DNA of 64,000 bases from an uncultured Alphaproteobacteria bacterium (GCA_944391475.1 CALXTR010000002.1:67814-131813); one strand, 5' to 3'; numbered from the stretch's first letter, positions 1 to 60,661 are shown. A program made the numbers and translations. Notes: a model not told the origin generated them from the sequence alone.

Positions 1-519
1 CAATTTTGGTGCAATATCATTATCCACGTTGCCGGTGGGTTCATCTGCCAGCAATAGTTCCGGACGATTTATCACGGCACGAGCAATAGCTATGCGTTGT
101 TTTTCACCGCCAGAGAGTGTGGAGGCTTTTGCATACATACTCTTATCCAACTCAACCCAAGCCAGCAATTCAGTGACGCGCTTTTTGACCTCTTTGTCAT
201 TCATTCCGCAGATGCGCAGCGGCAAGGCAACATTATCAAACGCGCTCATGTGTTCCAAAAGTCTGAAATCTTGAAAAACGACCCCAATCTTGCGGCGCAA
301 CAGAGACAAACTGTCTCGGTTAGCAAAGTTGATGTTTTTGCCAAACACTCCCATAACTCCGCGGCTGGGCTTTTGCGCCAAATACATCAGGCTCAAGAGT
401 GAGGTTTTTCCCGCGCCGCTCTTGCCGGTTAAAAAATGAAACGAGCCTTTTTTTAGGCATAACTTAACATCACTTAATATCTCGGGTCCTTGGTCATAGC
501 GGATACCGACATTATGCAT
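1..519 (-). CDS. ftsE: Cell-division ABC transporter ATP-binding protein FtsE (C-terminal end runs off window edge; start codon uncertain, ATG at 519 or upstream non-ATG)
   Basis: Reverse-strand translation gives Walker A GKSGAGKTSLL, signature LSGGEKQRIAIARA, Walker B LLLADEPTGNVD and the FtsE-typical LLRRKIGVVFQDFRLL block. The plus-strand ORFs in the track here are mirror artefacts. Confidence 0.8.
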   Translation of the reverse strand, partial: MHNVGIRYDQGPEILSDVKLCLKKGSFHFLTGKSGAGKTSLLSLMYLAQKPSRGVMGVFGKNINFANRDSLSLLRRKIGVVFQDFRLLEHMSAFDNVALPLRICGMNDKEVKKRVTELLAWVELDKSMYAKASTLSGGEKQRIAIARAVINRPELLLADEPTGNVDNDIAPKL

Positions 520-27358: not shown

Positions 27359-28874
27359 CTTCTGGTGTCACCTCCTCTGTCGGAGCCAATGGCAGATTTA
27401 TCTCCTGCATCAGATTGGCTGGCACGTTTAAGGTATTACCAAGCCACAAGGCAGCTTCTCTTGCATTTACAACACTCAATGCATCACCCCCAAGAGATGC
27501 TACCAAGCCGACCCATTCGGTCACAGTGCTCACATCTTTGCGAGCCTGAACCAAGGCTAAGGGGGATTTGTACTGCAAATCTACCACCTTGCCGTCTAGG
27601 TCAAAATTCATAATATCGCCGCGGCGGCGCAAAATGTAAAATGCACGTTTTAACAGCGGGGTTAAAAGCTCCGATTGTAATCTTCCAAAACTTGCTCCCA
27701 AGATACGCGCCATTTGTGAAGCTCGTTCCAAGACTTCGGTTGCAGTCATATTCGGAGTGCTGATTTGGGCCAAACTATCAGCCAACAGGGCATGATTAAT
27801 GCGGCTGCGCAAATCTTCCAGCACCAACTGCGAAATATCAAACTTACCTGGAGCTTCCAGCGGTGTTAGTCCTTTTGATCCCACCGCTTTGGGAATGATG
27901 GCACCCGGAACCAGCTTAATATTGGCGGGGTTTAAGATACCGTCATCATCGGCTTGCCAAATGCCGGTTACCGAAATGGAGGCATTTTTCAATATCAATT
28001 CCACCACCTTATTGGCGGTTTTGATATCGGGCAATGCTTTCATAACCGGAGAGCGGCCATAAACCTCTCCCGGAGCTTTGAGCCAACGAAAATTGATAAA
28101 CGGTGAAGTATCAAAAACACCATCTTTCAGCACAAAAGCATTTTCTGCTCCTTCGCCGGCGTCAAAAACAAAGGCAGTATATTCATACCCCAAAGCGCCA
28201 TACTTGCCGCTCCTTGGCAACACCGCCTCAATTAATTCCATTTTATAGCCCTTATCTTCTCGCGCCCGATTATAATAATTGTCGGGAATCTCGGCATTTG
28301 GGAAGCGGTGTCTAATCCCCTCAATTGAGATTTGCGAGCATCTAAAGGTGGTATCGAGCCGGCCATCGGCACTTTCTTCTAGGGCGATTTCTCTTAGCGG
28401 AACGGCATAAAACCGAAAGGCCGTGCTTTCGCCAATCGGGGCTTCTTCAAACATCAAACAAGCCGTACCGGCGGTGACCAAGTCCAGATAACACTGGTGA
28501 ATCTCGACTGCAAAATTGGAATGTTCAAAATTTTGCAGCAGCACATCGGTACTCTTTTCTAAAATCGGGCCCACCTGACTGCGTTCTTGCGCGCTCAACT
28601 CCGGCCCTGGTCTCAAACCAAACCATTTGGCCCAAGGCGGGGTCAACTCCGAAAGCAATGAGGATGCCAGCTGGTCAACCGCATCGGGAGCGGTGCCATC
28701 AAACAAATGCAAATTCTGCTTGCCGCCATAGTTATCATAATACTGCTGGGTACTGACGTTTTCGCGCTGAGGAAAAGCATAGTTATAGCACTCTTGCCAA
28801 TGCGGTTCCCAATTTTGGCGGCGTTCCACCGCTTTTTGCCAGCGGGTTACCAGTTCGCGGATTTTATCTGACAT
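27339..28874 (-). CDS. Portal (head-to-tail connector) protein, podovirus type
   Basis: 511 aa, close to the T7 gp8 size. Located between terminase and scaffold/capsid. Acidic, helical C-terminus. Confidence 0.7.
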   Translation of the reverse strand: MSDKIRELVTRWQKAVERRQNWEPHWQECYNYAFPQRENVSTQQYYDNYGGKQNLHLFDGTAPDAVDQLASSLLSELTPPWAKWFGLRPGPELSAQERSQVGPILEKSTDVLLQNFEHSNFAVEIHQCYLDLVTAGTACLMFEEAPIGESTAFRFYAVPLREIALEESADGRLDTTFRCSQISIEGIRHRFPNAEIPDNYYNRAREDKGYKMELIEAVLPRSGKYGALGYEYTAFVFDAGEGAENAFVLKDGVFDTSPFINFRWLKAPGEVYGRSPVMKALPDIKTANKVVELILKNASISVTGIWQADDDGILNPANIKLVPGAIIPKAVGSKGLTPLEAPGKFDISQLVLEDLRSRINHALLADSLAQISTPNMTATEVLERASQMARILGASFGRLQSELLTPLLKRAFYILRRRGDIMNFDLDGKVVDLQYKSPLALVQARKDVSTVTEWVGLVASLGGDALSVVNAREAALWLGNTLNVPANLMQEINLPLAPTEEVTPEDVIKQA

Positions 28875-28876
28875 AC

Positions 28877-29074
28877 CTACTCTCCCAAAAGTTTTTTGCG
28901 GTTGAGGTCTTTAGTATCCAAAAGCCCGTTGTATGAGGTCTTAATGGTGCTCTCAACCCCACGGCGCTGTCTTTCCAAAGCCTTCTGACGTTCTTCTTCG
29001 GCTAGCTTTTCGGAATTATCATTCTCAACTACTGCCGGAGCTGAAGTTTTGGGTGCTGAAAATACTCCTCCCAT
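28877..29074 (-). CDS. Hypothetical small protein
   Basis: 65-aa ORF 3 nt after the preceding gene. Gly/Ala-rich N-terminus. Confidence 0.3.
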   Translation of the reverse strand: MGGVFSAPKTSAPAVVENDNSEKLAEEERQKALERQRRGVESTIKTSYNGLLDTKDLNRKKLLGE

Positions 29075-29085
29075 ATTTGTTCTCC

Positions 29086-29619
29086 TTATAATTTATTTGT
29101 ATTGACCAATTTGTTTAAAATTCCGCCCTTGGTGGCTGAGGTTTTGACCTCGCCGGTGCGGACAACCGAAATTCCCAATACGCCCAAGGCAATGCCCCAA
29201 AGCGAAGTGGTTTCGACTAATGCCATAATAATTTCGGGTGCTCGCGGATTGTCGCTCACAATCACATAGCAGAGCGTGAACATACACAACAGCCACGACA
29301 CAGCGACCGAATAGCCAAAGGCCGGACGCCAAAACCGAACAAAGCGGTCTTGCGAGTTGAGCTCGTTTCTCATGGTATCGTGGATTAGTTTTAAGGTGGA
29401 AGAATCTAAACTATTTTCCAGTTCTTGCGATTTTTCCAAATGCCGGTTGGCCTCTTTGAGTTCTTCTAGCGAAATTTGCTCCTTACTGATGGCATTATCG
29501 ACATCGCTTAATGCTGAAACGGCTTTTTTGGCAAAGTCGTTATTGATACTCCCTAAAGACGAACTCACAAATTTGACCAATATCGGCAGACCGATTTTTC
29601 CTAAAATTCGGGTTAACAT
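29086..29619 (-). CDS. Lysis-associated membrane protein (holin or spanin-like)
   Basis: 177 aa with an N-terminal coiled-coil-like region and two C-terminal TM helices. Adjacent to the endolysin. Confidence 0.35.
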   Translation of the reverse strand: MLTRILGKIGLPILVKFVSSSLGSINNDFAKKAVSALSDVDNAISKEQISLEELKEANRHLEKSQELENSLDSSTLKLIHDTMRNELNSQDRFVRFWRPAFGYSVAVSWLLCMFTLCYVIVSDNPRAPEIIMALVETTSLWGIALGVLGISVVRTGEVKTSATKGGILNKLVNTNKL

Positions 29620-29628
29620 TTTTTCTCC

Positions 29629-30048
29629 TTATTTCTCAATGTCATTATAAAAAACATGGCTGCCAAGCTCGGTGCAGGGAATTTTTCCAATCGACCAAGC
29701 CGGACGTAGCTGTTTGGTATGATAGTGGGTGGCGCCGCAAGTATTGTCTTCTAGTAAACCGGCGCGCGCTCTTAGTGCTATCCGTTTACAAATGGCAAAA
29801 TTTAAATCATGTTCCAAATTTTGCTCCAAAAGCTTGCGGTTGGGATCGTTTTCGTTCCAACAAGAAAACTGCCATGGTTTGTGGCAAACCTCATACACGC
29901 TGTTACCCCACCAATACCTTCCGCGCCGTTTGGAAAAAGCGACCCGATTTAAGATGACTGAGGCAACCGCTTCTTGTCCGGATAAACTTTCGCCTCTGGC
30001 CTCGCCAAAAATGGTACGTGCCATGGCTTCTACGTCTTCATCATTCAT
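29629..30048 (-). CDS. Endolysin, cell-wall hydrolase SleB family (Hydrolase_2)
   Basis: ARTIFGEARGE ... QFSCWNENDPN motifs are diagnostic of the SleB-type hydrolase domain. 139 aa. Confidence 0.85.
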   Translation of the reverse strand: MNDEDVEAMARTIFGEARGESLSGQEAVASVILNRVAFSKRRGRYWWGNSVYEVCHKPWQFSCWNENDPNRKLLEQNLEHDLNFAICKRIALRARAGLLEDNTCGATHYHTKQLRPAWSIGKIPCTELGSHVFYNDIEK

Positions 30049-30050
30049 CT

Positions 30051-30335
30051 TTACCTCCCGGTCCGATCATCAATTTTCTTTTCTATCCGCAACAGGTGTT
30101 CGGTCAGGCGGTTTTCGACATCTTTAAGATAATTGGTGGACACATAATTGCGGGCAACATGAATTTTGAATTCGCTCAAGGCCTCGCGACAGCCGGATAA
30201 TTTTTGCTCCTGCACGCCTTTTATATCATTGATACTATCTTCAAAGTGTGCGCGGTTCTTGCTTATCATCCGAAACAGGCCTAAAAAAAGGGGCACCTCT
30301 ATCATGGTGACCCAGCTAAACAATTCTCCCGTCAT
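30051..30335 (-). CDS. Putative holin (small membrane protein)
   Basis: 94 aa. N-terminal TM helix (FSWVTMIEVPLFLGLF) followed by a charged C-terminus. Immediately upstream of the endolysin with a 2-nt gap. Confidence 0.4.
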   Translation of the reverse strand: MTGELFSWVTMIEVPLFLGLFRMISKNRAHFEDSINDIKGVQEQKLSGCREALSEFKIHVARNYVSTNYLKDVENRLTEHLLRIEKKIDDRTGR

Positions 30336-30373
30336 AAATCTCTCCTTTCCTTTGATTGGTTTATTTTTCCTTT

Positions 30374-31873
30374 CTACACCTCAAAACCTACATGAGCCTG
30401 AAACTGTCCTCCACCGCCCTGCCAACTGCTGCTCTTGAAATTTTTATAATTCCAACCACTTCCGGATAAACGCACCGGCTCGGAACGCAGGCAACCGGCA
30501 ACGGCGTCAAGTGCATCATCATGCAAGCTCCCTTCAAAACTCCACTCACGCATTTCCTCAATGAAACCACCGGCATAAACCCTTCGATGCACATTTAAGG
30601 CTCGAGCCGCTAACACCACTTCAAAAGCTTCCAAAATTCGCTTTTGCTTGTTTTCGGTAGAGTACATCTCCAAAACCGCTGCATTTAACTGCCTTGTTCT
30701 TAATTCCTTACGCAAGATTCCGGGCAGAAATTTGCCAAGTCCGTTTATCTCCACCCTTACTGAGGGCAAGTGGTTGCGTTCCAAAAAATCGACCACGCTT
30801 CGACACTGCGCCTCGGCGGCATTTTGTTCCTCTCCTTTTTGTAATCTGATATACTCCAAATCGTGCAGGTAATAGTTCCCCGCCTCATCTGAAAACACGC
30901 AGGCAATCACGCTGTTATCGCCCCCATTGCCAAAGGACGGGTCCCACCAGCAAGAAGCTGAAAGCAACTTCCTTTCCCCAAGTTTTAAGAACTCGCGTTC
31001 GTTGGCGCTGATGAGCTCCAACTCCTCGCAATAAGGCTTTAACAAATCCGGATTTAAGACGCACTCTTGCACATTGACCGGTTTGAGCATCATCTGCGAG
31101 AGAAATTTGCTCTCGCCCGAACGTGCCCGAATGGAGGCGATTTTTTCATCAGAAAATCGCTCCGGCCAGGCGCTCTTGCCGTGCTTATCCAAAATGGGCA
31201 ATTCCAACTTCTTAAACCCCAGCAAAAACGGCTCAACTTCTGCTTTACTCGCCTCATACTCAGTTTGATATATGGTATAGTAAGTATGCGGAGTGCCGAT
31301 ATATAACTGCACTCCAGATGGCGTGAGAATATAATCGAGCTCGCTTAGTTTTTCTCTCATATCGGCTCGCTTTAAGGCCGTATCACAATTTTTGGGAACT
31401 TCCACATCATCGCAAATGATGATATCGGCACGAAGACCGGTAATGTTTGCTCCCAAACCCTTGGCCAGCATAGATGGATCTCGCAACTCGGCGTCGCGGT
31501 TAATGGTAAACTGGTCAGATGACCACTGATCCAAGCGATCCGGTTTGAGCCCTAAAGTCAGCGGGTGCTGCTCAATAATCCGCTTAACGTTTCTAACCAT
31601 TTTTTTTGCCAAAGCATGATCAGCGGCAATTACCAAAATGCGGCTTGCTGGTTTGGTATACAATATCCAAGCGCAAAACAAGCCGACAATGGTGGATTTG
31701 CCCGAATTGCGAAAGGCCATCAGCAAACCTTGACGCCGCTCTTTTTCGTTCCACAAAGAAGAAAGCCAACGAGCAATCTTTCTTTGGTGTTTGGGCACAC
31801 CCAATCCTTGGAGCCGAAACCAGACATATACAAACTCGAAAAAATCAATCTTCATCTTCTTGTCCGTCGTCAA
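30374..31873 (-). CDS. Terminase large subunit (T7 gp19-like)
   Basis: Walker A AFRNSGKST. ATPase plus nuclease domain architecture. 499 aa. Confidence 0.8.
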   Translation of the reverse strand: MTTDKKMKIDFFEFVYVWFRLQGLGVPKHQRKIARWLSSLWNEKERRQGLLMAFRNSGKSTIVGLFCAWILYTKPASRILVIAADHALAKKMVRNVKRIIEQHPLTLGLKPDRLDQWSSDQFTINRDAELRDPSMLAKGLGANITGLRADIIICDDVEVPKNCDTALKRADMREKLSELDYILTPSGVQLYIGTPHTYYTIYQTEYEASKAEVEPFLLGFKKLELPILDKHGKSAWPERFSDEKIASIRARSGESKFLSQMMLKPVNVQECVLNPDLLKPYCEELELISANEREFLKLGERKLLSASCWWDPSFGNGGDNSVIACVFSDEAGNYYLHDLEYIRLQKGEEQNAAEAQCRSVVDFLERNHLPSVRVEINGLGKFLPGILRKELRTRQLNAAVLEMYSTENKQKRILEAFEVVLAARALNVHRRVYAGGFIEEMREWSFEGSLHDDALDAVAGCLRSEPVRLSGSGWNYKNFKSSSWQGGGGQFQAHVGFEV

Positions 31874-32159
31874 ACTCGTTTTTGGCCTCTATCAGCAATT
31901 TTTCTATGTCAGTGGTTGTTCCGCTCATAGGTTGCGGGTTTTCGTCTTCGGTCCAGCGCGCCAATTTGAGCAAAGTTTCGGCGTGCACCACTGCCGATTT
32001 GCAGGCACTGTGGTGAGCACTAAAGCCTTTGGCATCATCAGGCACGGGTTGTTCCGAAAAATTTTCGTAGCTTGCCATCACTTCAGAAATTTTTTCAGGA
32101 AGTGTTTTTTTGAGGCGTTTTTTTAAGGCAGAAAGTGTTTTTATTTTTTTGGTTACCAT
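31845..32159 (-). CDS. Putative terminase small subunit
   Basis: 104 aa with a basic N-terminus and acidic C-terminus. 29-nt overlap with the terL start. Confidence 0.3.
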   Translation of the reverse strand: MVTKKIKTLSALKKRLKKTLPEKISEVMASYENFSEQPVPDDAKGFSAHHSACKSAVVHAETLLKLARWTEDENPQPMSGTTTDIEKLLIEAKNEFDDGQEDED

Positions 32160-48394: not shown

Positions 48395-49714
48395 ATGTCT
48401 AACTTAATAAATTTCTTAAATATACTTAAAAATGTGATTTCGCCGCTAACCGCGTTTTTTGCCGGAACGGCTTTGGCTTGTTGTGCTTATGCGCTACTGA
48501 CCTCGACTTTGGGTTTGCGAATGGCTGAAAACGGAGTTTCGACCTTTGCGGCAGGTATTGTGCTCTCGCTTTATTATGCCGGTTATATCATTGCCTCCAA
48601 AACCTCGAATCACATCATTAATCGAGTAGGTCATATTCGCTCATTTTCGGCATATATTTCCATTTTCTCGGCTTTAGTATTGCTGCATTATTTCTCGGTT
48701 AACCCGATTTACTGGGGCGTGTTGCGCTTGCTCGAGGGATATTGCATGGGCTCGAGTTTTATGTGTTTGGAAAGTTGGCTCAACACTCGTGCCAATAACA
48801 AAAATCGCGGCCTATTAATGTCATTATACATGATTACTTCTTATCTCGGTGCCAGTAGCGGTCAGTTGCTCCTCAATATTCCCGATCCAAACGGAATTGT
48901 GATTTATATTGTGGTATCGGTGATTTTTTCCTTGGCTCTAGTCCCGATTTCGCTCACCGCGCTCCCCTCGCCTAATATTTTGGCACACAAAAGCATGTCG
49001 CTGTTTAAGCTATATAAAATTTCTCCGGTGGGAGTGGTTGGCTGTCTTTGCAGCGGAATTTTTGTAGGTGCGTTCTACTCTCTGGGCGCGATTTATGCTC
49101 ACCTTATCGGGTTTGATATTGAAATGACCTCGTTGTTTATGTTCTTTGGGGTTTTGGGCGGCTTACTTATCCAATTTCCTATCGGTAAACTTTCAGATTT
49201 GTGCGACCGCCGCTATGTGATGATGTGGATTGCCGGAGTTTTGTTTTTTATTGCGCCGTGGGTACATTTTTTGGTCGACAATGGCGTTTGGCAACTGGCA
49301 ATCGGCGCACTACTCCTGGGCTCGGGAACTTTTATTCTTTATCCGATTTCGGTTTCGCACGTTAATGATTTGATTGAAGATGACGACAGGGTCAATGCCG
49401 CAGGAATGATGATTATGCTCCAAAGTATCGGAATGATTTTGGGCCCGGTGGCAATTTCTTATTTGATGCAAATCGGCGGGGCAATCTGCTTTGTGTTGGC
49501 TTACTCCATTGTGACGGCTTTCTTTGTAATCTTTACACTCAAGCACATTACCTTTAAGCCAGATATCAACTATCTAAACGTTACCCCAACTAACCCAATG
49601 CCGATTGATACGACCCATGCTTTTCATCAGCTGTCTCAAGATGATGAACTTTCTACTTACTCAAAAATCAGGAAAGCAATTTTGCAACGCCTTAAGCGCT
49701 CAGCAAAACCTTAG
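48395..49714 (+). CDS. MFS transporter
   Basis: 12 predicted TM helices, 439 aa. Motif-A-like region between TM2 and TM3. Confidence 0.7.
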   Translation: MSNLINFLNILKNVISPLTAFFAGTALACCAYALLTSTLGLRMAENGVSTFAAGIVLSLYYAGYIIASKTSNHIINRVGHIRSFSAYISIFSALVLLHYFSVNPIYWGVLRLLEGYCMGSSFMCLESWLNTRANNKNRGLLMSLYMITSYLGASSGQLLLNIPDPNGIVIYIVVSVIFSLALVPISLTALPSPNILAHKSMSLFKLYKISPVGVVGCLCSGIFVGAFYSLGAIYAHLIGFDIEMTSLFMFFGVLGGLLIQFPIGKLSDLCDRRYVMMWIAGVLFFIAPWVHFLVDNGVWQLAIGALLLGSGTFILYPISVSHVNDLIEDDDRVNAAGMMIMLQSIGMILGPVAISYLMQIGGAICFVLAYSIVTAFFVIFTLKHITFKPDINYLNVTPTNPMPIDTTHAFHQLSQDDELSTYSKIRKAILQRLKRSAKP

Positions 49715-51356
49715 CGGCGGCTCTGGCCTCATCAGAAATAACTTCGCCAGCCAGCATACGGGCAATTTCTTCGCATTTTTCGGTGTTATCAAGTTCACGT
49801 ACGCAAGTGGTGGTCACATTGTCTTGGGTGGATTTTTCAACCTTGAAATGGTGGTTACCTTGTGCGGCAACTTGCGGAGAATGGGTAACAACCAAGACCT
49901 GTACACCTTGGGCTAATCTGGCTAATCGCTCCCCTACTGCCTGAGCCGTGGCGCCACCGATACCGGCATCGACCTCATCAAAAATCATGGTCTTGACACT
50001 TGAGGTTTGCGCCAGATTGACTTTCAGAGCCAGCATAAATCTTGAAAGTTCACCACCGGAGGCGATTTTATTTAAGGGGCCTTGCGGCGAATTGGGGTTA
50101 GTAGAAACTGTGAAGCAAACACTATCAAAACCATTTTCGCTCCAAGAACTTTCGGAGAGCTTTTCAACCACAGTAACAAAGCGCGCCCTCTCCATTTTGA
50201 GCGGCGGGAGCTCGGCCATAACCGCGGCATCTAACCGCATGGCGGCTTGTTTGCGCTCGGAACTTAGCTCATTTGCGGCTTTAAGATAAGCAAGTTTGGC
50301 TTGCTCTTCGGCTTGGCGGAGGCGATGTATACCCTCCTCGCCAAACTCAATATTGCTTAGTTTTTGTTTGAAATCGGCTAACACATCGGGCAAATCATCT
50401 ACCCCAACCTGATGTTTGCGCGCCAGACCTCGCAGGCTAAACAAGCGGCTCTCAATTTCTTCTAACTCGTTGGTATTCATACTCACATTTTCTGAGGCAT
50501 TCTCAATGGCGCTTAGAGCCTCGGAAGTTTCAATCATGGCTTGTTCGAGGTCATCAATAATCTCGGAATATTTGCCGCCGACCATATCATTTATCTTATA
50601 CATAGCAGATTGAGCCTGACGCAGAGAGGATTGGACATCGTTGCCTTGGGTGAGCAAGCCATACGCATGGTTTAGCCCCTCAATGATTTTTTCGGCATTC
50701 ATCAGTTCCAAACGGCGGGTGGTCAGAGTATCTTCTTCGCCTTTTTCGGGATTGATTTTTTCAAGCTCGCCAACCCAATGGCGCAGATTGTCTTCTTCGG
50801 TTTTGGCTCGTTCAATATCGGCTTCGGCGGCAATCCGTTGGCGGCGTGCTTCTTTATAAGCGCCATAAGTTTGTTTGGTGGCGGCAAGCAAATCGGCATA
50901 ATTGCCATAAGCATCCAGCACACCTAAATGCGAAGCCGGATTGAGCAAGCCTTGGTTATCAAACTGTCCGTGGACCTCAACCAAATTTTTGCCGATTTCA
51001 CGCAGAAGTTTGGCACTTATCGGCTGGTCGTTTACAAAGATTTTTCCTTTGCCTTCAGTGGTGAGACTACGCTTAATTATCAATTCGTCTTCGCACTCAA
51101 TGTCATTTTCGGCTAAGAGCTCAGCCAAAGCCTCGCCTGATTGCGGCGCGCTAAAAGATGCGGTCACGCTCAGCTTATCGGCTCCGTGGCGAATGAGTGA
51201 AGTTTCGGCCCGATTGCCTAAAACCAGCCCCAGCGAATCTAGCAAGATAGATTTTCCGGCGCCGGTTTCTCCGGTCAAAACGCTCAAGCCGGATTGAAAA
51301 TCCAAATCCAGCTTGTCAATCAGTACAACATTGCGAATCGATAGACTTTGGAGCAT
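49692..51356 (-). CDS. recN: DNA repair protein RecN
   Basis: SMC-like: Walker A GETGAGKS, coiled-coil middle, signature LSGGELSRFMLALK, Walker B MIFDEVDAG. Confidence 0.9.
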   Translation of the reverse strand: MLQSLSIRNVVLIDKLDLDFQSGLSVLTGETGAGKSILLDSLGLVLGNRAETSLIRHGADKLSVTASFSAPQSGEALAELLAENDIECEDELIIKRSLTTEGKGKIFVNDQPISAKLLREIGKNLVEVHGQFDNQGLLNPASHLGVLDAYGNYADLLAATKQTYGAYKEARRQRIAAEADIERAKTEEDNLRHWVGELEKINPEKGEEDTLTTRRLELMNAEKIIEGLNHAYGLLTQGNDVQSSLRQAQSAMYKINDMVGGKYSEIIDDLEQAMIETSEALSAIENASENVSMNTNELEEIESRLFSLRGLARKHQVGVDDLPDVLADFKQKLSNIEFGEEGIHRLRQAEEQAKLAYLKAANELSSERKQAAMRLDAAVMAELPPLKMERARFVTVVEKLSESSWSENGFDSVCFTVSTNPNSPQGPLNKIASGGELSRFMLALKVNLAQTSSVKTMIFDEVDAGIGGATAQAVGERLARLAQGVQVLVVTHSPQVAAQGNHHFKVEKSTQDNVTTTCVRELDNTEKCEEIARMLAGEVISDEARAAAKVLLSA

Positions 51357-52153
51357 TAGTTCTTTGTTTCACCCTTCAATAAACTCTTCGCCTTGGCATA
51401 CCATTTGCTCTTGGGGTAATTGTGTCCCAAAACTTGAGCGGCAGTATCGGCCTCTTGTGTCATGCCCAAAATGGTATAAAGCTCAACTTGGCGATACAAG
51501 GCTTCTTCAATGTGACTGGTGGTTTGATAGTCGTTAACCACGGTCGAAAAACGGTTTAAGGCTGAGAGGTAATTGTTTTGCGACAAATAATAACGCCCGA
51601 TTTCCATTTCTTTGCCGGCCAAGTGGTCGCGGGTTAAATCGAGTTTCAATCTGGCGTCTTGGGCATAATCGGTGTTGGGAAAACGGAAAATAACCTGCTG
51701 TAGAGCTTTATAAGCTTCTTCAGTATTGCCCTGGTCTTTTTCAACTGTGGTTATTTGGTCATAATAGCACAGCGCCTTAAGGTAATAGGCATAGGCAATA
51801 TCCTTGTTACCGGGGTGAAATTTGATAAAGCGGTCAAGGCTGATGATGGCGTCATCATATTTATTGTCTTTATAATAAGCATATGCGCCCATTAATTTGG
51901 CCTTGGTGGCCCATTTGGAATAAGGGTGTTCAAGCTCGACTTTTTCAAAGGTTTCGGCCGATTTTTGATATTGATCTTTGTTGAGCAATTTGTATCCTTT
52001 GACATACAGTTCTTCGGCGGATTTATCATCATCATTATCTGGGGTTGATGAACAAGCCGTAACCAAACTCAGTCCCAAAAACAAACTTAATATCAGCGCA
52101 AATTTTTTCATGCTTAATCCTTTATATGATTTCATAATTGTTTTCATCGGCAA
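51356..52153 (-). CDS. bamD: Outer membrane protein assembly factor BamD (ComL-like TPR lipoprotein)
   Basis: Lipobox LVTAC. TPR-like repeats. Conserved position between lpxC and recN. 1-nt stop/start overlap with recN. Confidence 0.85.
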   Translation of the reverse strand: MPMKTIMKSYKGLSMKKFALILSLFLGLSLVTACSSTPDNDDDKSAEELYVKGYKLLNKDQYQKSAETFEKVELEHPYSKWATKAKLMGAYAYYKDNKYDDAIISLDRFIKFHPGNKDIAYAYYLKALCYYDQITTVEKDQGNTEEAYKALQQVIFRFPNTDYAQDARLKLDLTRDHLAGKEMEIGRYYLSQNNYLSALNRFSTVVNDYQTTSHIEEALYRQVELYTILGMTQEADTAAQVLGHNYPKSKWYAKAKSLLKGETKN

Positions 52154-52994
52154 ACAAAAGCTTTAGTAGCTCGTTGGTGTGGTGATGTCCGGTACGAACC
52201 GCCTCCAGCTCGCCTAAGATATAGTATCCGGAAGTATACAAATCACCCACTGCATCTAAAACTTTGTGATTGACGCATTCGTGCTCACAACGAAAACCCT
52301 CGGGGTTCAAAATTTTATCACCATCTAATACTACCGCATTTTCTAAGCTTCCACCCTTGATTAGGCCAATTGATTGCAGATAGTCGACCTGATATTTTTC
52401 ACAAAAAGTGCGGCAAGGAGCGATTTCGTCCTCAAACAGCTGCGGGGTAATTTCACCTGCAAATTCTTGATGACCGACGATTGGAGACGGGAAATCAATT
52501 GCAAAATTAATCACCTGCCCTTTAGCAGAGGGGCTGAGTTTAATATGCTTATCTCCATCGGTCAGCTCGATAGTTTTCTTGACTTTAAGGTAATGTTTGG
52601 GAGCATTTTGCTCGACCAAAACGCCCGGAGCCATAAATGAACGGAAAAACACTAAGGCACTACTATCCATAATTGGGAGTTCCGGACCATTGACCTCAAT
52701 TAAGGTATTATCCAATCCGGCAACAGAAAGAGCAGCCATAAGGTGCTCAACAGTCGATACAACATTGCCGTGATTATCACCAAGGCAAGTGCAGTTTCTG
52801 GTATCTACCACATGAGAATAGAGCGCTGGAAACTTAGGCCTATCGGGCAAATCGGTGCGGCAAAAGACTACCCCATGGTTTATCGGCGCAGGGTTTATGA
52901 CCAAGCGAGATTGACAGCCGGAATGAAGTCCGTGACCTTCAATTACAATGGGGTGAGATAAGGTTTTTTGCATACTAAAAACTCCAGATTGCAC
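52122..52994 (-). CDS. lpxC: UDP-3-O-acyl-N-acetylglucosamine deacetylase (true start possibly the ATG at 52973)
   Basis: Conserved LpxC blocks (TVEHLMAALSVAGLDN, EVNGPELPIMDSSA, HHTNELL). Overlaps bamD by 32 nt. Confidence 0.9.
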   Translation of the reverse strand: MQSGVFSMQKTLSHPIVIEGHGLHSGCQSRLVINPAPINHGVVFCRTDLPDRPKFPALYSHVVDTRNCTCLGDNHGNVVSTVEHLMAALSVAGLDNTLIEVNGPELPIMDSSALVFFRSFMAPGVLVEQNAPKHYLKVKKTIELTDGDKHIKLSPSAKGQVINFAIDFPSPIVGHQEFAGEITPQLFEDEIAPCRTFCEKYQVDYLQSIGLIKGGSLENAVVLDGDKILNPEGFRCEHECVNHKVLDAVGDLYTSGYYILGELEAVRTGHHHTNELLKLLFADENNYEII

Positions 52995-53236
52995 AAGTTA
53001 ATTATTTTTACACCTGATTGGGGGAATTTGCAATTACAAAATCTAATCTTCCAAGGCTATTTAGTTTATATTCACAAATTGGACAAATATCCTTAGGGTA
53101 AGCTAATAAATTATTGCAAATTTCGTAAAAATATATTATGATATTACTTATATATAGAATCGCTAATGGGAGAATCTAAGGGTTTTAAGGTAATTTAAGC
53201 TTTTGTCTAGTTTTTAGCAAGGAAAGGACTACCACC

Positions 53237-56200
53237 ATGCAGGAGAAGAAAAAATCCGGCCCGGTTTGTTGCGGCCAAAATTTAAGAAAATTGCGCTTTT
53301 ATCGAGGCGTGAGTTATGTGGTTTTATGCTTGGTAATAGTTATTACTCTTGGTTGGATGGGGTTAGGAAATAATGCATATGCAGCAATTTGTTTCTTGCC
53401 TGACTGCATGGATAAAATGGTCGAGTTTAAAGGAGATGCCAATACTTCTACAAAGTTTTGTACAGACAACGGATATACTTATTATGAATTAGGACAATGC
53501 CCTCAATATTCTATTGCTGAGGTTTGCCCTTCTGATAGCCATTATCTTAAATGTGATTCTACAAAATGGTGTACTGATAATAACTATACCACAACAGCTG
53601 ATGATTGTAAGGCGCCTAAATATGCCGATGAACAGTGCCCCAATGGGCTTAAACTTTATAAACAATGTAAAGAAGATTTTACAAGAGCTTGCAGCGAAGA
53701 AAATCATGAGTATGTAAGTGAATGTTTAGAAGGCTGGCAACTTGATGAAGAAAATCTTTGTAGCTACTCGCCACTATATGGAATATGTTGCAATAAATGT
53801 AGCGACTATCCCTACGAAGCAGATGAAATTCCTAATGGATACCAAAAAGCAGAAAGCTGCCTTGCCTGCGGTGATGTGACCAGATACAAAAAAGAACCCT
53901 ATAATTGTGCTAACGACGGATTTAAGAAATGTAGTAATGGACCTAAAACAGGTAGTGCAACTTGTTTAAGCGGAACAGAAGTTTGGTATCGCGAATGCTG
54001 TATTCCATGTGATGATTTTCCTTATTTTGAAAATACCATCCCCACTGGCTACCTCAAAGGGGATAGTTGTGATTCTTGCGATGGAATGAAATTTAAAACT
54101 AAAATTGGAGACTGTGCAGAAGGATACAAGTGGGAGAATGGATTTTGCGTCCCAGAATGTGATAATGTTTGTGAACCTGGTAGTGTTTTCTATTCTGATC
54201 TTTCTTGTTGTTCACAGAAATCATCTAGCAAAACTCCAATTGGTGTAGTTGCTTATGTAAATGGTATTAAAAAATATATTATTAATTTGAATGGATATAC
54301 CCAACAAATTGGGGAATATGATACCAAAAACATCAGTAATATATCTAGCGTTGATAGTGCAAAATTGGATTTTGCCGGAAAAGTTAAAACATATAGCAGC
54401 ATTCAAGAACGCGGCAGCAATACAAATCATGCTGCCGGATATTGTTATAATTTCATAACTGAGGGCACAAATAAAGGTGACTGGTATTTACCCGCTGCCG
54501 GTGAATTATATTCGTCTTTAAGCGAGAACAAATTAGCTATAGGCGTTGGTATGAAAAATAGTGCTGGAGAGAATCTCGAATCTTGGCATGCGTCTTCTTC
54601 CGATGCTCTAAACGGCACAATCTGGAATGTGAATGCCAGTACTGGTGAAGTGGAATCTTTTGATGGGGTTAATGATGCTAATATACGTTGTATGCTTTCT
54701 CTAGAATGGAACGAAGATGATAACAATGCACAAGTATGCGATTCTCGGTATAGTTTTGCTTGTAGAAACTATAATGATCTTAGCGGATATGGAACAGCTT
54801 GTGGTGGACTTTACACCAAATGCAATTGTAGATACCCAGCGAATTGGCAAGTAAATGCATGTAAATGCCCGAGCCAATATAGATTTTCATGTTATGGATA
54901 TAATGAAGCTGGAGGAAATGGGCAATCTTGTGATGGTAAATATGCAAGTTGTCGTTGTCGCTCTGGATATGTTTGGAGCGGAAGCAGCTGTGTATTCCAA
55001 AGTTGTGACAGCAGCTATCGCTACACATGTGTCGGCTCAGGAATAACCGGTGGCTCAGGCACTCCATGTGGTGGTAAATATAAGAGTTGCACTTGCAAAG
55101 CATTTTACGCATGGAATTCTTCTGGATATTGTGTATTTCAAGGTTGCCCCACCGCGTATAAATATACCTGTAGCGGTGAAGGCTACGAAGGAGGATCCGG
55201 TGTTGATTGTCAAGGCAAATATTCAATGTGCACTTGTGCCGATGGATATGAGTGGAAAGATGGTCAATGCGGTTTAGTCGGATGCAGTACTGCTTATAAA
55301 TATACTTGTGAAACAACAGATAAAATCACAGGTGGGTTTGGTACTGCTTGTGGAGGTAAATATACAAAATGTTCATGCAAATCCGGATATACATGGCTTG
55401 GTGAAGATTGTGGATGTTCTACCTCATATCGTTACACGTGTAGCGGTCCTGAATATCAGAGAGGCGAAGGACTGCCATGTGATGGTAAATATGCAAAATG
55501 CGTGTGTCATCAGGATTACGTTTGGGATGGTAGTAAATGTGATTGTGGACCAAATTTTCAATATACATGTGCCCCTAATAGTGCTGCTCATATAACCGGA
55601 CCGCTTGGCGGGAGCTGTAATGGCAAGTATAAAAATTGCCAATGCGAAGATGGATATTATTGGGGTAGTGGTACATGTGTTTGTAATCCAGATTATAAAT
55701 ATACATGCTCTATGCCTCATGCTACAGGTTCTGGAACTGCCTGTGGAGGTAAATATAAATCTTGCACTTGTGAATCCCCATATTTCTGGGATATGAGTAA
55801 AGATATATGCGCTTGTGATACATCATACAAATATACGTGCTCTAATGAAGGAGAAAAACCTGAAGGTACAGCTTGTAACGGAAAATATCAAAGCTGCGGT
55901 TGTAAAAGTGGGTATTATAAGAAAAACGGAGTTTGTGTCAAAAAGACATCCTGCGATGTTGGTGATATTCTCAATTCTGATATGACTTGTACCATTACAA
56001 AAGAAAGTGGCAAGACGCCGATTGGGGTGGTATCGTATGTTGATGGCAACACTGCAATTGCAATTGAATTAGAAGCACATGAGTCCAGAGGACCAACTGT
56101 TGAGAATTGTCCAATTTTACCAGATTTGAACGATTACGATGCATCGTTTGACTATAATGGGAAAGCAAACACTCGGATAAGAGTTGAATATTTTCCTGAT

Positions 56201-57223
56201 GCTTCAATAGCAGATTCTGGAACACACATATGTTATAACAATACCACAGCCGGAACTTCAAAAGGAGATTGGTATTTGCCAGCAGCAGCTGAACTGTCTA
56301 AATCTATTGTATTCAATATCGATGAAGTTAATAAAGGATTGCAGAATGCCGGTGGAGATGAGATTATATATGGTGAAGATTACTGGTCTTCTACTGAAGC
56401 CGAAAAAGAAGGTGTTGGAGATTATCCATATGCTTGGATGGTGCTTGGCGGACGATATAAGAAATCAGATATGGGTGGTAACTGGCATCAACAAAGATGC
56501 GTAATTGCCTTTAATGACAACAAAGACGGATCTGCAACCATATGTAACAAGGATTATGTATTCAGATGTTCTGGTACCGGCTATACCGGTGGCAATGGCG
56601 AAAGCTGTGGGGGAATGTACAAATCTTGTAGCTGTGCGAGTGGGTATGAGTGGAAGAATGGGGTGTGCGAGCAGGCGGTAGTTTGTGAGGTCGGAAATAT
56701 CCTCAACTCGGATATGACTTGCTCGGCCTCAAAGGTAAGCGGTAAAACGCCGATTGGGGTCATCTCTTATATGAACGGTAGTACGCGATTGGCGATAAAT
56801 TTGGTAAATATGAAAATGCCTTGGGGTGGCGATGGTACAGATATATCGGGATTGACGAATTATAGTTCATCGCCACATACAACAGACTTTAGTGGTAAGA
56901 GTAATACATCTAAGATAGTAAGTGTATTAGGAAGTAGCTCCACAAGTTATGCGGCAGGATATTGCTATAATTTTACGACCGCAGGGACATCTAAGGGAGA
57001 TTGGTATCTCCCTGCACAAGGAGAGCTATATGCCTCGATAGTGACTAACTATTCAGCAGTAAACAGTGGATTGAGTGCGGCCGGAGGTACATCTGTAAGT
57101 AGATATCATTGGTCGTCGTCCGAGTATAGCTACCTTACCGCGTGGAATGTGGATGCCAGTGGCGGTGTGGCCGGCGGCCTTAAGGGTCTCTCCTTTTACG
57201 TCAGGTGTGTCCTAGCTTTTTAG
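53237..57223 (+). CDS. Giant secreted cysteine-rich repeat protein with three DUF1566/Fib_succ_major-like domains
   Basis: N-terminal signal/anchor. Three about 180-aa modules, each opening C.(V/P)G.(I/V)(L/F).SD(M/L).C....SGKTPIGVV.Y and containing YCYNFTT.GT.KGDWYLPA.GEL (nt 54171-54719, 55951-56543, 56685-57220). Between them lie about 10 repeats of C...Y(K/R)YTC......G.G..C.GKY..C.C..GY.W. Confidence 0.8.
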   Translation: MQEKKKSGPVCCGQNLRKLRFYRGVSYVVLCLVIVITLGWMGLGNNAYAAICFLPDCMDKMVEFKGDANTSTKFCTDNGYTYYELGQCPQYSIAEVCPSDSHYLKCDSTKWCTDNNYTTTADDCKAPKYADEQCPNGLKLYKQCKEDFTRACSEENHEYVSECLEGWQLDEENLCSYSPLYGICCNKCSDYPYEADEIPNGYQKAESCLACGDVTRYKKEPYNCANDGFKKCSNGPKTGSATCLSGTEVWYRECCIPCDDFPYFENTIPTGYLKGDSCDSCDGMKFKTKIGDCAEGYKWENGFCVPECDNVCEPGSVFYSDLSCCSQKSSSKTPIGVVAYVNGIKKYIINLNGYTQQIGEYDTKNISNISSVDSAKLDFAGKVKTYSSIQERGSNTNHAAGYCYNFITEGTNKGDWYLPAAGELYSSLSENKLAIGVGMKNSAGENLESWHASSSDALNGTIWNVNASTGEVESFDGVNDANIRCMLSLEWNEDDNNAQVCDSRYSFACRNYNDLSGYGTACGGLYTKCNCRYPANWQVNACKCPSQYRFSCYGYNEAGGNGQSCDGKYASCRCRSGYVWSGSSCVFQSCDSSYRYTCVGSGITGGSGTPCGGKYKSCTCKAFYAWNSSGYCVFQGCPTAYKYTCSGEGYEGGSGVDCQGKYSMCTCADGYEWKDGQCGLVGCSTAYKYTCETTDKITGGFGTACGGKYTKCSCKSGYTWLGEDCGCSTSYRYTCSGPEYQRGEGLPCDGKYAKCVCHQDYVWDGSKCDCGPNFQYTCAPNSAAHITGPLGGSCNGKYKNCQCEDGYYWGSGTCVCNPDYKYTCSMPHATGSGTACGGKYKSCTCESPYFWDMSKDICACDTSYKYTCSNEGEKPEGTACNGKYQSCGCKSGYYKKNGVCVKKTSCDVGDILNSDMTCTITKESGKTPIGVVSYVDGNTAIAIELEAHESRGPTVENCPILPDLNDYDASFDYNGKANTRIRVEYFPDASIADSGTHICYNNTTAGTSKGDWYLPAAAELSKSIVFNIDEVNKGLQNAGGDEIIYGEDYWSSTEAEKEGVGDYPYAWMVLGGRYKKSDMGGNWHQQRCVIAFNDNKDGSATICNKDYVFRCSGTGYTGGNGESCGGMYKSCSCASGYEWKNGVCEQAVVCEVGNILNSDMTCSASKVSGKTPIGVISYMNGSTRLAINLVNMKMPWGGDGTDISGLTNYSSSPHTTDFSGKSNTSKIVSVLGSSSTSYAAGYCYNFTTAGTSKGDWYLPAQGELYASIVTNYSAVNSGLSAAGGTSVSRYHWSSSEYSYLTAWNVDASGGVAGGLKGLSFYVRCVLAF
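54730..55940 (+). repeat. Tandem array of nine 99-105-nt (33-35-aa) six-cysteine coding repeats inside the giant gene (a tenth copy at 56544-56672)
   Basis: Recurring nucleotide motifs (tataaatatacctg, tgtggaggtaaatat, tggatat) in register with the protein repeats. Confidence 0.7.
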
Positions 57224-57496
57224 TTAACTAACCGAGTTTGGGTAAAAAATATTATTATGTTTTTTCTTTCTCCGATGCTCCGGCAGTGGCTTTTGCGCTG
57301 TCGGAGTTCTATATTTATAAGCTGTTGTAAACTTATGATTATATACATCAATTCATTGGGCGCAAAAGGCAGCTCATTATGTAACGGTCGCTTGAAACAT
57401 ATTGTTTCTTCGCCACCTAACAACTTCGCGACGTTGGAAACCTAAATGCGCTGCGGCTTTTGTCAAAGCCTCGCTTATTGATGTTTCCTGACCCTA

Positions 57497-57526
57497 CGGT
57501 GAAAAAACTTTCACCGGAAGTTTTTT
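57497..57526 (+). terminator. Possible plus-strand intrinsic terminator about 270 nt downstream of the giant gene (3'UTR end or small RNA end)
   Basis: Stem CGGTGAAA / TTTCACCG with loop AAAC, then GAAG and T6. Confidence 0.35.
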
Positions 57527-57582
57527 CATCCTCGGCGATTGTGCTTTGCGGAGTGCTTTTTTATATTATTCTCTCTAAGCAC

Positions 57583-57608
57583 AAAAAAACGGGGAGAAAA
57601 TCTCCCCG
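57583..57608 (-). terminator. Intrinsic terminator of the clpB–orf144 transcript
   Basis: Stem CGGGGAGA / TCTCCCCG with loop AAA, followed on the minus strand by T7. 20 nt after the orf144 stop. Confidence 0.8.
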
Positions 57609-57630
57609 CATACTAAAGCATCTAGCCCTA

Positions 57631-58065
57631 CTAATCTTCAAAATACTCCTTAGCAAAGCGGAACTTGTCCCAGCCGTTAATGCTCTTTACATCCTCATTG
57701 CGCAAAATCGCCGGCAACTCTGTGCTCCGAAAAACACTGCGCGGGTCGGCATCTTTTACAAATGCCACCACGTCTCCCTTAGCCTCGCTTATCATGCGCG
57801 CTGAGGCAATCTTCCACACTGCGGCTATCTCCTCAGGACTCAAGCCAGACTTATCTCCGTCTAAGCCCAATCTTATCAGCTCTTTTCCGCACTCGGTCTG
57901 GTCTATCATCATTGCTTCGGGGTGCGTGTCCAAATAGGCAAAAGCTTTTTCCTTATTTTCCTTACTCGGCAAAAAGCTTACACTATACAGCACTACCCCG
58001 TCTTTAGGCGTGGACACAGACATAGTCTGTGCCACCCTAACCGCTTGTTCATACAAATCAGACAT
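57631..58065 (-). CDS. Hypothetical protein translationally coupled to clpB (8-nt overlap)
   Basis: 144-aa ORF with no recognisable motif. ATG lies inside the clpB 3' end. Own terminator downstream. Confidence 0.5.
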
Positions 58066-60661
58066 TTTTACGTTTGTCCTTTACTATCTCCAATTCGCCG
58101 TTGCTAACGATGATATTAGCCGTGTCGTTATCAGAAATTTCACCGTCCAATATCTTTAAGGCCAGTTTATTCTCAATTTGGTTCTTGAGCAACCGTCTTA
58201 ACGGACGTGCGCCATACACCGCATCGTAGCCGTTGTTGACAATCCACATAAACGCAGCCTCGTTAACATTGAGGTGAATATTCTTCTCAGCCAAGCGTTT
58301 CTCAATATTCTTAATCTGAATCTCGGCAATGTCCTTAATGTTACTCTTATCAAGCTTATGAAAGACTATAATCTCATCAATACGGTTGATAAACTCGGGA
58401 CGGAACGAGGCTTTGACAATGTCCATAACCTGAGCACGAACTTTCTTGCCGTCATCAGCCGAAGTGGCGCGAGTTAAAATATCAGAACCCAAGTTAGAAG
58501 TCATAATGATGATTGTATTTTTGAAATCTACCGTGCGGCCTTTACCATCAGTCAAACGACCATCGTCTAATACCTGCAATAAGATATTAAACACATCGGG
58601 GTGGGCTTTCTCGATTTCATCAAACAAAATGACCTGATAAGGACGACGACGAACCGCCTCGGTTAAAACCCCGCCTTCCTCATAGCCGACATATCCTGGA
58701 GGAGAACCAATCAGACGAGCCACCGAGTGCTTTTCCATATACTCGGACATATCCACTCTCAGCATGGCACTCTCATCGTTAAACAAGAACTCAGCCAAGG
58801 CTTTGCTCAATTCGGTTTTACCTACACCGGTCGGACCTAAGAACAAGAACGAACCTATCGGCTGTCTGCTTTCGCTGATACCGGCACGAGAACGACGCAC
58901 CGCATTAGACACCGCCACAATCGCCTCTTTTTGACCAACAACGCGTTTGGCCAAAAAGTCTTCCATGTGCAAGAGTTTTTCTCTTTCGCCTTCGAGCATT
59001 TTATCAACCGGAATGCCGGTCCACTTAGAGACTACGCTCGCGATGTTTTCTTCGGTTACCGTCTCACTTATTCCGCTCTTCTTATTCTTGGAGTTTTCCT
59101 CGGCTGCTTTAATTTTTTGTTCCAATTCCGGAATTAGGCCATATTGCAATTCGCCGGCGCGCTCATACTCGCCGTTTCGTTTGGCAATTTCGACCTCAAT
59201 TCTGGCCTTGTCTAACTTATCTTTCAAGCCAGTTAAATCCGACAAGCCTTGTTTCTCGCTCTTCCACTTGTCTTCCAAAGCCTTAGCCTTAGACTCCAAG
59301 CCGGTGATTTCATAGCCTATCAACTCCAAACGCTGTTTGGACTTGTCATCGGTTTCTTTCTTGAGAGCCTCACGTTCGATTTTTAACTGCAAAATCTTGC
59401 GGTCTAACTCATCTAACTCTTCCGGTTTGGAATCTATAGCCATACGCAGGGAGCTTGCGGCCTCGTCCATCAAGTCTATGGCCTTATCTGGCAAGAAACG
59501 ATCCGTGATATAGCGGTTAGACAAAGTGGCAGCTGCCAATAATGCGGCATCAGAAATTCGCACTCCGTGGTGGAGCTCAAACTTCTCTTTAATACCACGC
59601 AAAATCGAAATGGTTTCTTCAACCGTCGGCTCGCTAATATACACCGGTTGGAAACGGCGTGCCAGGGCAGCATCTTTTTCAATATACTTCTTATACTCAT
59701 TCAAAGTGGTGGCACCAAGGCAGTGCAATTCGCCACGAGCCAAAGCCGGTTTGAGCAAGTTTGAGGCATCCATTGAGCCTTCGCTGGCACCCGCGCCGAC
59801 AATGGTATGCATTTCATCAATAAACAAGATGATATTGCCATTAGCGGCCTCGATATCATTTAAGACGGCTTTCAATCTTTCTTCAAACTCACCACGGAAT
59901 TTGGCACCGGCAATCAACGCACCCAAGTCCAACGACAACAGCCGTTTGTGGCGCAGGCTTTCGGGCACGTCATCGTTGACAATACGCATAGCCAAGCCCT
60001 CGACAATCGCGGTTTTACCAACGCCCGGCTCACCTATCAAGACCGGGTTGTTTTTGGTACGACGCGACAAAACCTGAATGGTTCTTCTAATCTCGTGCTC
60101 ACGGCCGACCACCGGATCTAGTTTTCCTTCTTTGGCCTTAGCGGTTATATCCACCGCATATTTCTTTAGTGCCTCAAAGTTATCTTCGGCGCTTTCGCTA
60201 TCGGCGGTTCGACCTTGGCGATAGTCATTAATCACCTGGTTGAGCTTTTTGGCATCGACCCCGCTGTCTTTCAAAATGCGATAAGCCGGAGTGCCGTCCG
60301 TTAGCGCCAGAGCCTGCAAAATTCTTTCCAAAGTGACATATTTATCATTCGCTTTATCGGCCAATTTTTCAGCCTCAAGCATCACTCTCGTAAAGTCTTG
60401 CGACATTAGGCTTTGAGTGCCCTCGCCCATGACTTGCGGAACTTTACTCAACTGTTCGCTCAGCTGATTGCGGATTTGAATCAGGCTGCCGCCAGACTTG
60501 TTGATTAAGTCGGCAATCAGCCCGCTTTTATCATCAATGAGGGCTTGCAGCAAATGCTCAGGAGAGATGTACTGGTGCTTTTGGCTAGCCGCCAGTTTGA
60601 CTACATCTTGAATTAAATCTTTGGAACGATTGGTTAGTTTTTCATAATCCATATTATTCAC
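58058..60661 (-). CDS. clpB: Chaperone protein ClpB (AAA+ disaggregase)
   Basis: N domain, NBD1 Walker A GEPGVGKT, long middle coiled coil, NBD2 GPTGVGKT. 867 aa. Confidence 0.95.

Follow-up and report, generated by a model that had tools for sequence, protein, structure and literature searches.

A candidate adhesin with DUF1566 heads and a six-cysteine repeat array in an uncultured gut alphaproteobacterium

What is the large, cysteine-rich protein encoded between lpxC and clpB in an uncultured alphaproteobacterium, and how does its sequence vary while the flanking genes hardly change? The gene is located at 53237-57223 in a stretch of 64,000 nucleotides (nt) from GCA_944391475.1 (CALXTR010000002.1:67814-131813), here called the window; all positions are counted from its first letter. 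We propose with moderate confidence that the gene encodes a Sec-exported, disulfide-stabilised, modular, adhesin-like ligand-binding protein, which belongs to a multi-copy recombining family of a gut alphaproteobacterium. This proposal builds on how the domains are arranged, on the fold of the heads and the paralogy, on flanks shared among paralogs, on mosaic alleles and on the targeting of relatives by diversity-generating retroelements (DGRs).

Architecture of the protein

One open reading frame (ORF) on the plus strand covers 53237-57223, and 8% of the encoded amino acids (aa) are Cys. The exact protein is present in NCBI and ENA with no name attached. In a search of 5.8 billion proteins, only 28 resembled it over the full length; 27 of them are unnamed and one is a JGI 'hypothetical protein'. 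The order along the chain is signal, N-terminal domain, module 1, nine six-Cys repeats, module 2, repeat 10 and module 3:

53237-57223, plus strand: coding sequence (CDS), 1328 aa with 106 Cys, without a name in public collections
53237-53386, plus strand: putative signal peptide, aa 1-50, with a basic n-region of 24 aa, a hydrophobic core (aa 25-43) and the junction AYA↓A
53387-54145, plus strand: N-terminal Cys-rich domain, aa 51-303, 27 Cys, isoelectric point (pI) 4.5
54146-54715, plus strand: DUF1566/Lcl_C module 1, aa 304-493 (Pfam; DNA repeat family D2)
54737-55936, plus strand: nine six-Cys repeats in one tandem array, aa 501-900, 54 Cys, pI 8.0 (DNA repeat family D1)
55952-56521, plus strand: DUF1566/Lcl_C module 2, aa 906-1095 (Pfam; DNA repeat family D2)
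56543-56668, plus strand: six-Cys repeat 10, aa 1103-1144, modelled together with module 3
56684-57223, plus strand: DUF1566/Lcl_C module 3, aa 1150-1328 plus stop codon (best Pfam stretch aa 1237-1325)

A sequence-only reading of this DNA had anticipated much of this layout. The single ORF for 1328 aa, the N-terminal signal, about ten repeat copies (ten were found) and three modules of about 180 aa with a common opening and core were all recovered. Its count of more than 120 Cys was too high. Modules and repeats do not alternate as it had supposed: nine repeats form one array between modules 1 and 2, and only one lies between modules 2 and 3. It was right in recognizing modules and repeats and made no mention of the separate Cys-rich N-terminal domain of 250 aa (aa 51-303).

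The three modules are 180-190 aa long and share a ...GKTPIGV... opening and a GYCYN...GDWYLPA.GEL core. The DNA repeat family D2 marks their starts at 54170, 55952 and 56684. PF07603 (Lcl_C/DUF1566) matches the protein in three stretches with 50.2 bits against a gathering cutoff of 34.9 (E=3.7e-13), as had been suspected. Each module has four conserved Cys. Identity among the modules amounts to 34-47% (module 1 versus modules 2 and 3: 34-43%), and their pI values are 4.7, 4.4 and 7.8 for modules 1, 2 and 3, respectively. For structure prediction, repeat 10 and module 3 were modelled together with AlphaFold from an alignment of 33 paralogous segments, which yielded a mean predicted local distance difference test (pLDDT) value of 94.2. 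Foldseek aligned this model best with 4EPS (E=7.6e-7; TM score 0.58 on the query) and next with 8Q4E (E=2.2e-4); behind these came weak C-type lectin-like domains. In addition, 4EPS was retrieved by the module sequence profile (E=6.7e-6). By sequence and model, the modules are members of the DUF1566/Lcl_C family with a predicted C-type-lectin-like fold.

The identity with Fib_succ_major proposed alongside was not borne out, as TIGR02145 gave no match at E<=1 (NCBIfam release 20). The sole NCBIfam match at this threshold was FimD_tip_adhes, with 15.2 bits against a cutoff of 170 and covering only the C-terminal 84 model positions. Membership in the type V pilus tip adhesins (FimD) was rejected on account of this far sub-threshold, partial match and the lack of pilin domains. 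Among known families, the protein belongs only to the DUF1566 domain family.

The ten six-Cys repeats start at aa 501, 544, 590, 637, 683, 727, 770, 816, 860 and 1103. Their core comprises 41-45 aa and their period 43-47 aa, which replaces the previously claimed 33-35 aa. All six Cys are invariant in the spacing C-7-C-11..15-C-6-C-1-C-10..12-C, and the consensus reads CxxxYKYxCxGxxxxGGxGxxCGGxYxSCxCxxGYxWxxGxC. The mean pairwise aa identity is 46%, and DNA identity ranges from 60 to 74%. This modest identity, like that among the modules, indicates old, diverged copies instead of recent duplications. Searches with the repeat in Pfam, NCBIfam and the PDB sequences gave nothing significant, so its proposed novelty stands. 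When single repeats were scanned with Pfam, only sub-threshold matches were obtained: ADGRF3_N in 30 of 48 repeats, and at best E-values of 0.005-0.02 the EB module, ADGRF3_N, cEGF and EGF_3. An AlphaFold model of two repeats (pLDDT 84.6) consists of beta-hairpins throughout; its best Foldseek match had E=0.85, and the weak list comprised Eph, tumour necrosis factor receptor (TNFR), furin-like and epidermal growth factor (EGF) modules. On the weak matches and the all-hairpin model, the repeat can be assigned broadly to the small beta-hairpin modules held together by disulfides. The sequence-only reading had suggested checking a repeat pair for an EGF- or knottin-type fold; the outcome is a confident all-beta hairpin model, with no significant fold match.

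The repeat shares with EGF-like, TNFR Cys-rich and furin-like modules the six Cys within ~42 aa, the beta-hairpins and the class of its weak matches, and it differs from them in that it appears to be restricted to bacteria. Compared to classical EGF, it has a far longer C2-C3 loop (11-15 residues) and a shorter C3-C4 loop (6 residues). The tail pattern C-x-C-x2-[GP]-[FYW]-x4-8-C, which we take to be the PROSITE pattern EGF_2, fits seven of the ten repeats. Neither an EGF-family hidden Markov model (HMM) nor a solved EGF structure matched the repeat significantly, and EGF family membership is not established. When the repeat profile was compared exhaustively with 1.84 billion representatives, 313 clusters matched at E<=1e-3, of which 122 also passed E<=1e-10. 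The carriers sampled are unannotated Cys-rich proteins, mostly with DUF1566-type modules as judged by sequence or by similarity to loci in alphaproteobacterial metagenome-assembled genomes (MAGs); Lcl_C was matched in two of ten carriers scanned with Pfam. Judged by these profile searches, the six-Cys repeat is a real, lineage-rich and previously undescribed domain.

At the N-terminus, a basic stretch is followed by the only hydrophobic segment that a hydropathy scan found in the whole protein (aa 25-43). The cleavage site was placed with the -3/-1 rule, and the Sec call is a heuristic rather than the output of a predictor. The N-terminus is therefore best described as a probable Sec-type signal peptide. 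Its junction AxA↓(A/V)CFLPDC is kept in paralogs. The domain that follows contains two CC.xC.D[YF]PY...IP.GY...SC..C units. It is the paralog-conserved part of the protein, with 44-70% aa identity across paralog loci. No match to it was found among PDB sequences at E<=10, and nothing significant in Pfam.

A multi-copy family with shared flanks and mosaic alleles

To see who carries the family, the GTDB representative genomes were scanned with the module alignment. This gave 149 module matches, from which 78 loci were kept; counts per genome refer to the best 80. An earlier genome scan with peptide patterns from the single protein had yielded no matches. Of the 78 loci, 75 belong to gut MAGs labelled Alphaproteobacteria or proteobacterium, among them human ones (UMGS241, UMGS1426, MGYG-HGUT-04400), the BRZ bins, and MAGs from roe deer cecum and rabbit. 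The remaining three, which are the weakest, come from Bacteroidales or Prolixibacteraceae MAGs. Among the best 80, 18 loci fall to BRZ_MQ__bin8, in a genome that appears small, and 16 to BRZ_CI__bin98. The gene neighbourhood is not conserved from one paralog to the next. Within the 64-kb window, no second paralog was found. A literature search on RF32 adhesins returned nothing relevant.

One arrangement deserves separate mention. On a UMGS241-like contig (L009:6983-11117), a separate 331-aa ORF with the family N-terminal domain is located directly upstream of the paralog P0024, whose own N-terminus is different, shorter and of the PDCESLGY type. The pair may represent a split or recombined gene. 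It lies upstream of mraY-ftsW-murG-murB-ftsQ-ftsA and is another paralog adjoining division genes.

The paralogs have more in common than their coding regions. Two elements frame the gene:

53077-53236, plus strand: conserved 5' element with promoter, ~95-nt leader and ribosome-binding site (RBS), common to family paralogs
57237-57320, plus strand: conserved 3' element, containing a hairpin that resembles a terminator (57277-57307) as well as a T-rich tail

The 5' element (~155 nt) starts with a TTGACA-like box, and a promoter scan revealed a sigma70-like TTGCAA-N17-TATGAT at 53114-53142. It is 87-96% identical at unlinked loci in close genomes (L001, L010, L012, L014) and 76-79% in other gut MAGs (L002, L015, L016, L018, L009), even between paralogs whose proteins are only 44-58% identical. 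The 3' element (~85 nt) shows 77-97% identity among paralogs and an RNA fold z-score of -3.6. The gene is a self-contained expression unit composed of a shared promoter and leader, a CDS and a shared terminator. Rfam gave no match on 52800-58200. We do not claim a structured RNA, since the consensus fold of the leader is weak (-5 kcal/mol) and covariation scarce. In each of the 11 paralog copies aligned, promoter and leader are enclosed by a conserved 8-nt inverted repeat (TTGGACAAA, 53078-86; TTTTGTCTA, 53201-09), always in one orientation. It could be the site of a regulator, and there is no sign of inversion; an invertible promoter was dropped as an explanation because orientation never varies among the 11 copies and the repeat has short arms.

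Comparison with close relatives revealed allele replacement on a nearly unchanged background. From 50341 to ~53200 (recN, bamD, lpxC and the 5' element), L005 matches the window with 100% identity, which falls to ~65% at the start codon. This second allele is also carried by L006, which stems from a different study. In L017 (BRZ_DM__bin47), which is fully syntenic, the flanks are ~92-95% identical at the nt level and the flanking proteins 95-99.5%, whereas the N-terminal region reaches 65-75% and 54126-57237 is unalignable; homology resumes in the 3' element, 14 nt past the stop codon. The L017 gene encodes 1222 aa with four modules, two clear six-Cys repeats and a possible degenerate third one (aa 507-551).

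A 96%-identical copy of the window allele was found at another site, adjoining a LysR gene (L001). Its homology to the window begins exactly at 53077 and is organised in blocks: 100% over 1.4 kb, 84% in the signal-peptide core, 90-98% in the array, 74-91% in module 2, ~50% in module 3 and 100% in the 3' flank. Module 3 is an unalignable replacement in L001 (~50% nt identity, 56674-57187), and no donor for it at >=80% nt identity was detected among the fetched loci. About 220 nt of 3' flank (57320-57540) are common to the window and L001 and missing from the syntenic L017, which indicates that the window's replaced tract extends past the terminator element. L003 differs from the window at five of 15,194 nt, all within 53219-53233 in the RBS region, where it has essentially the L001-type version, from which it departs once more at 53234. 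From its sequence, this cluster of five differences looks like a micro-conversion tract. Altogether, the mosaic blocks fit what gene conversion between paralogs would leave.

Other members of the lineage use a second route. DUF1566 has been reported as the commonest DGR target domain in human microbiomes (PMC4159848). Among the fetched loci, two classical pairs of template repeat (TR) and variable repeat (VR) were present. L035:5596-9033 (BRZ_MQ__bin8) contains a full DGR cassette composed of an Lcl_C target gene, bAvd, TR and reverse transcriptase (RT); all 14 of 14 mismatches between TR (7253-7368) and VR (6426-6541) are at TR adenines, and the target gene ends with ...YVRPVLAF and the stop codon. 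At L043:6460-7384 (MGYG-HGUT-04400), 83% of 23 mismatches are at TR adenines. In these relatives, the VR falls on the C-terminal stretch whose counterpart in the window modules is the part that varies most. DGRs thus target single-module relatives, and the window gene shows no sign of it. With DGRs in the former and recombination here, the lineage would diversify one binding surface in two ways.

A candidate adhesin and its rivals

Since the protein is disulfide-rich and apparently exported, 'adhesin or lectin' appears a reasonable reading. In the mechanism we propose, binding would be accomplished by the three C-type-lectin-fold DUF1566/Lcl_C heads. Their variable C-terminal loops, which correspond to the stretch mutated by DGRs in single-module relatives, are probably the ligand-binding surface. 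The nine-unit array of six-Cys beta-hairpins might form a rigid, protease-resistant stalk parallel to the collagen stalk of Lcl, and the Cys-rich N-terminal domain could be the common base of the family. The protein would be exposed at the cell surface. The conserved flanks and N-terminus would supply homology for recombination between copies. Such recombination could swap whole coding regions or single modules and in this way diversify binding or antigenic specificity.

The closest parallel is Lcl from Legionella pneumophila (8Q4E), a surface or secreted glycosaminoglycan (GAG) adhesin with a stalk and a DUF1566 head, for which the same fold relationship has been described (PMC11162425). Both proteins have the DUF1566 domain by HMM and fold, both are, by all indications here, exported, and in both a repetitive, length-variable stalk or stalk-like region carries DUF1566. 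The differences are considerable. Instead of a Gly-X-Y (GXY) tract or any Pfam collagen family, a six-Cys array is present; three heads are located on one chain, whereas Lcl is a trimer of single heads; the C-terminal domain of Lcl has no disulfides (PMC11162425), whereas each module has its four conserved Cys; identity to 8Q4E is only 17%, and modules 1 and 2 are acidic, not basic. Membership in the Lcl-type collagen-like adhesins was rejected because the collagen GXY stalk is missing.

Bacteroides ovatus BACOVA_04982 (4EPS), the top match of both structure and profile, is likewise a gut surface protein with a C-terminal DUF1566-like head. It differs from the window protein, which has no pilin domains, and the phylum and presumed export route of the 4EPS/FimD family are different, too. 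In Fibrobacter succinogenes, a lectin-fold domain (TIGR02145/PF09603) has also been amplified to dozens of paralogs in a gut bacterium; the TIGR02145 HMM does not match our protein, the lineage is a different one and that family has no Cys-rich repeats. The DGR variable proteins (TvpA, Mtd and the DUF1566 targets of human microbiomes) resemble it in using a variation-tolerant ligand-binding fold (PMC4159848). In contrast to them, the window gene lacks a TR/VR pair, with no RT found among the window ORFs that were scanned, varies by replacement of modules or cassettes, and keeps ...VRCVLAF with a Cys where the targets have Pro. A phage tail fibre or receptor-binding protein was considered and rejected, since PHROGs yielded no match to the protein at E<=0.01 and the podovirus-like genes of the window are more than 21 kb away.

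Several observations weigh against the adhesin proposal. Neither an outer-membrane anchor nor a lipobox, an autotransporter barrel or a dedicated secretion partner was found, so that passage beyond the periplasm is only assumed. The stalk role is drawn from the analogy with Lcl. Modules 1 and 2 have a pI of 4.4-4.7, in contrast to the basic GAG-binding face of Lcl, which bears on the likely class of ligand. In addition, every related sequence is a metagenome assembly. Repeated flanks can give chimeric joins: L004 and L007 end at 53122 and L003 at 57315, and the window and L003 may originate from one sample.

The latter points lead to the view that the hypervariability is an assembly artefact, with the lpxC flank misjoined to the wrong paralog via the shared elements and only one allele at the true locus. 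We regard this as quite unlikely. It would be favoured by flanking elements of which each genome has at least 4-6 copies with 87-96% identity, by several contigs that terminate exactly inside them, and by data that consist wholly of MAGs or metagenome contigs. However, both alleles are bridged on both sides between lpxC and the ORF preceding clpB (allele A in the window, allele B in L017), and allele B stands beside lpxC in three assemblies that were made independently in two studies (L005, L006, L017). Among the ONAT22-1 samples, allele A occurs in SAMEA6814636 and allele B in SAMEA6814638. Since the shared elements are less than 100% identical between copies, systematic mis-joining is less likely, and because the CDS itself is a mosaic relative to L001, one wrong join would be insufficient as the cause. 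It is very improbable that the window gene is itself a DGR target served by an RT encoded elsewhere in the genome. Single-module relatives with the L035-type C-terminus are bona fide targets (L035, L043), and the gene closes with 15 nt (GTCCTAGCTTTTTAG) that recur unchanged at the end of the L035 VR. Yet the 64-kb window has no adenine-biased TR/VR-type repeat, no RT was found among those of its ORFs that were scanned, and the allele differences are whole-module replacements and mosaic blocks, not adenine-directed VR substitutions.

A further alternative accepts the family and its variability and concerns its purpose. The protein might be a binder of substrates or particles for nutrient capture (dietary or microbial polysaccharides, or other bacteria) and not a host adhesin. 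In this case, the family expansion would reflect substrate diversity as in Fibrobacter Fib_succ_major, and not immune or phage pressure. We consider this unlikely. The massive paralogy in gut MAGs of several hosts (human, roe deer, rabbit) and the acidic modules, unlike Lcl, are in line with it, as is the relation of DUF1566 and Fib_succ_major reported by HHsearch (PMC4159848). Glycogen-metabolism genes are present elsewhere in the window, though not linked to the gene. On the other hand, the Fib_succ_major model did not match, and no glycoside hydrolase or transporter was located beside any paralog examined. Furthermore, allele turnover on a 100%-identical background and DGRs in relatives are more typical of arms-race surfaces.

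A step beyond this proposal, possible but rather doubtful, is a recombination-based surface-variation system. Portable 'handles', i.e. promoter/leader and terminator, would allow coding regions or modules to be exchanged by gene conversion on an otherwise clonal background, alongside DGRs in the single-module relatives. If it exists, gut protozoa with their families of cysteine-rich variant surface proteins would have a counterpart in bacteria, though by analogy only. The system may also be behind chromosome rearrangements like the one that parted ftsZ and lpxC. If exposure and switching both hold true, the system bears on how low-abundance commensals evade IgA and phages and choose their niche.

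Such gut Alphaproteobacteria have not been cultured and have hardly been studied; this family probably supplies the main variable repertoire of their surface. The six-Cys repeat and the N-terminal domain are here defined as Cys-rich modules not described before, and both are candidates for domain databases. DUF1566 heads are tied here to a disulfide-based, putative stalk architecture parallel to Lcl. In addition, the lineage offers a tractable case of two diversification routes, paralog recombination and DGR mutagenesis, acting on one binding fold.

Chromosomal neighbourhood of the gene

The gene is flanked by neighbours on the opposite strand, which are given as context only:

49692-52973, minus strand: left flank with recN, bamD and lpxC
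57631-60661, minus strand: right flank with a 144-aa ORF (orf144), then clpB

Together with DUF4167, these neighbours (lpxC-bamD-recN, clpB) fit an alphaproteobacterial chromosome. The 144-aa ORF (57631-58065, minus strand) overlaps the start of clpB and is conserved beside clpB in L017 (95% aa identity) and L036 (54%); it has no match in Pfam or PHROGs.

Adjacency of ftsZ and lpxC(-bamD-recN) is common in Proteobacteria. As the sequence-only reading had noted, the gene adjoins lpxC, bamD and recN, which are located directly upstream on the minus strand; that reading had taken the gene to sit where ftsZ would be expected, suggesting an insertion or rearrangement. In the window, ftsZ is indeed absent beside lpxC; a recent insertion, however, is unlikely, since the sister MAG L017 shares the arrangement. 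There, the order MFS-recN-bamD-lpxC, family gene, orf144-clpB recurs, and ftsZ is found on another contig (L012), where three small ORFs and then a 971-aa paralog with the family 5' element come after it. In the roe-deer MAG (L020), a paralog is convergent with ftsZ. L036, a more distant relative, has a family member beside orf144-clpB and MatE instead of lpxC on the other side. The order shared with the sister MAG and the position of ftsZ beside another paralog argue for an older event: from gene order, it looks like a paralog-associated rearrangement that separated ftsZ and lpxC. A single inversion between inverted copies may account for the split.

Two other regions of the window were noted in passing. 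Between 8432 and 14861, three adjacent genes on the minus strand encode a GH77 4-alpha-glucanotransferase, a CBM48/alpha-amylase-family (isoamylase-like) enzyme and the branching enzyme GlgB. The region 19500-32100 is podovirus-like, with a nozzle gene (22640-24541), a T7-type head-to-tail connector gene (27339-28874) and a T7-like terminase gene (30374-31873), and is probably a prophage or a remnant thereof. Low-GC stretches at 14-18 kb and 32-34 kb border it.

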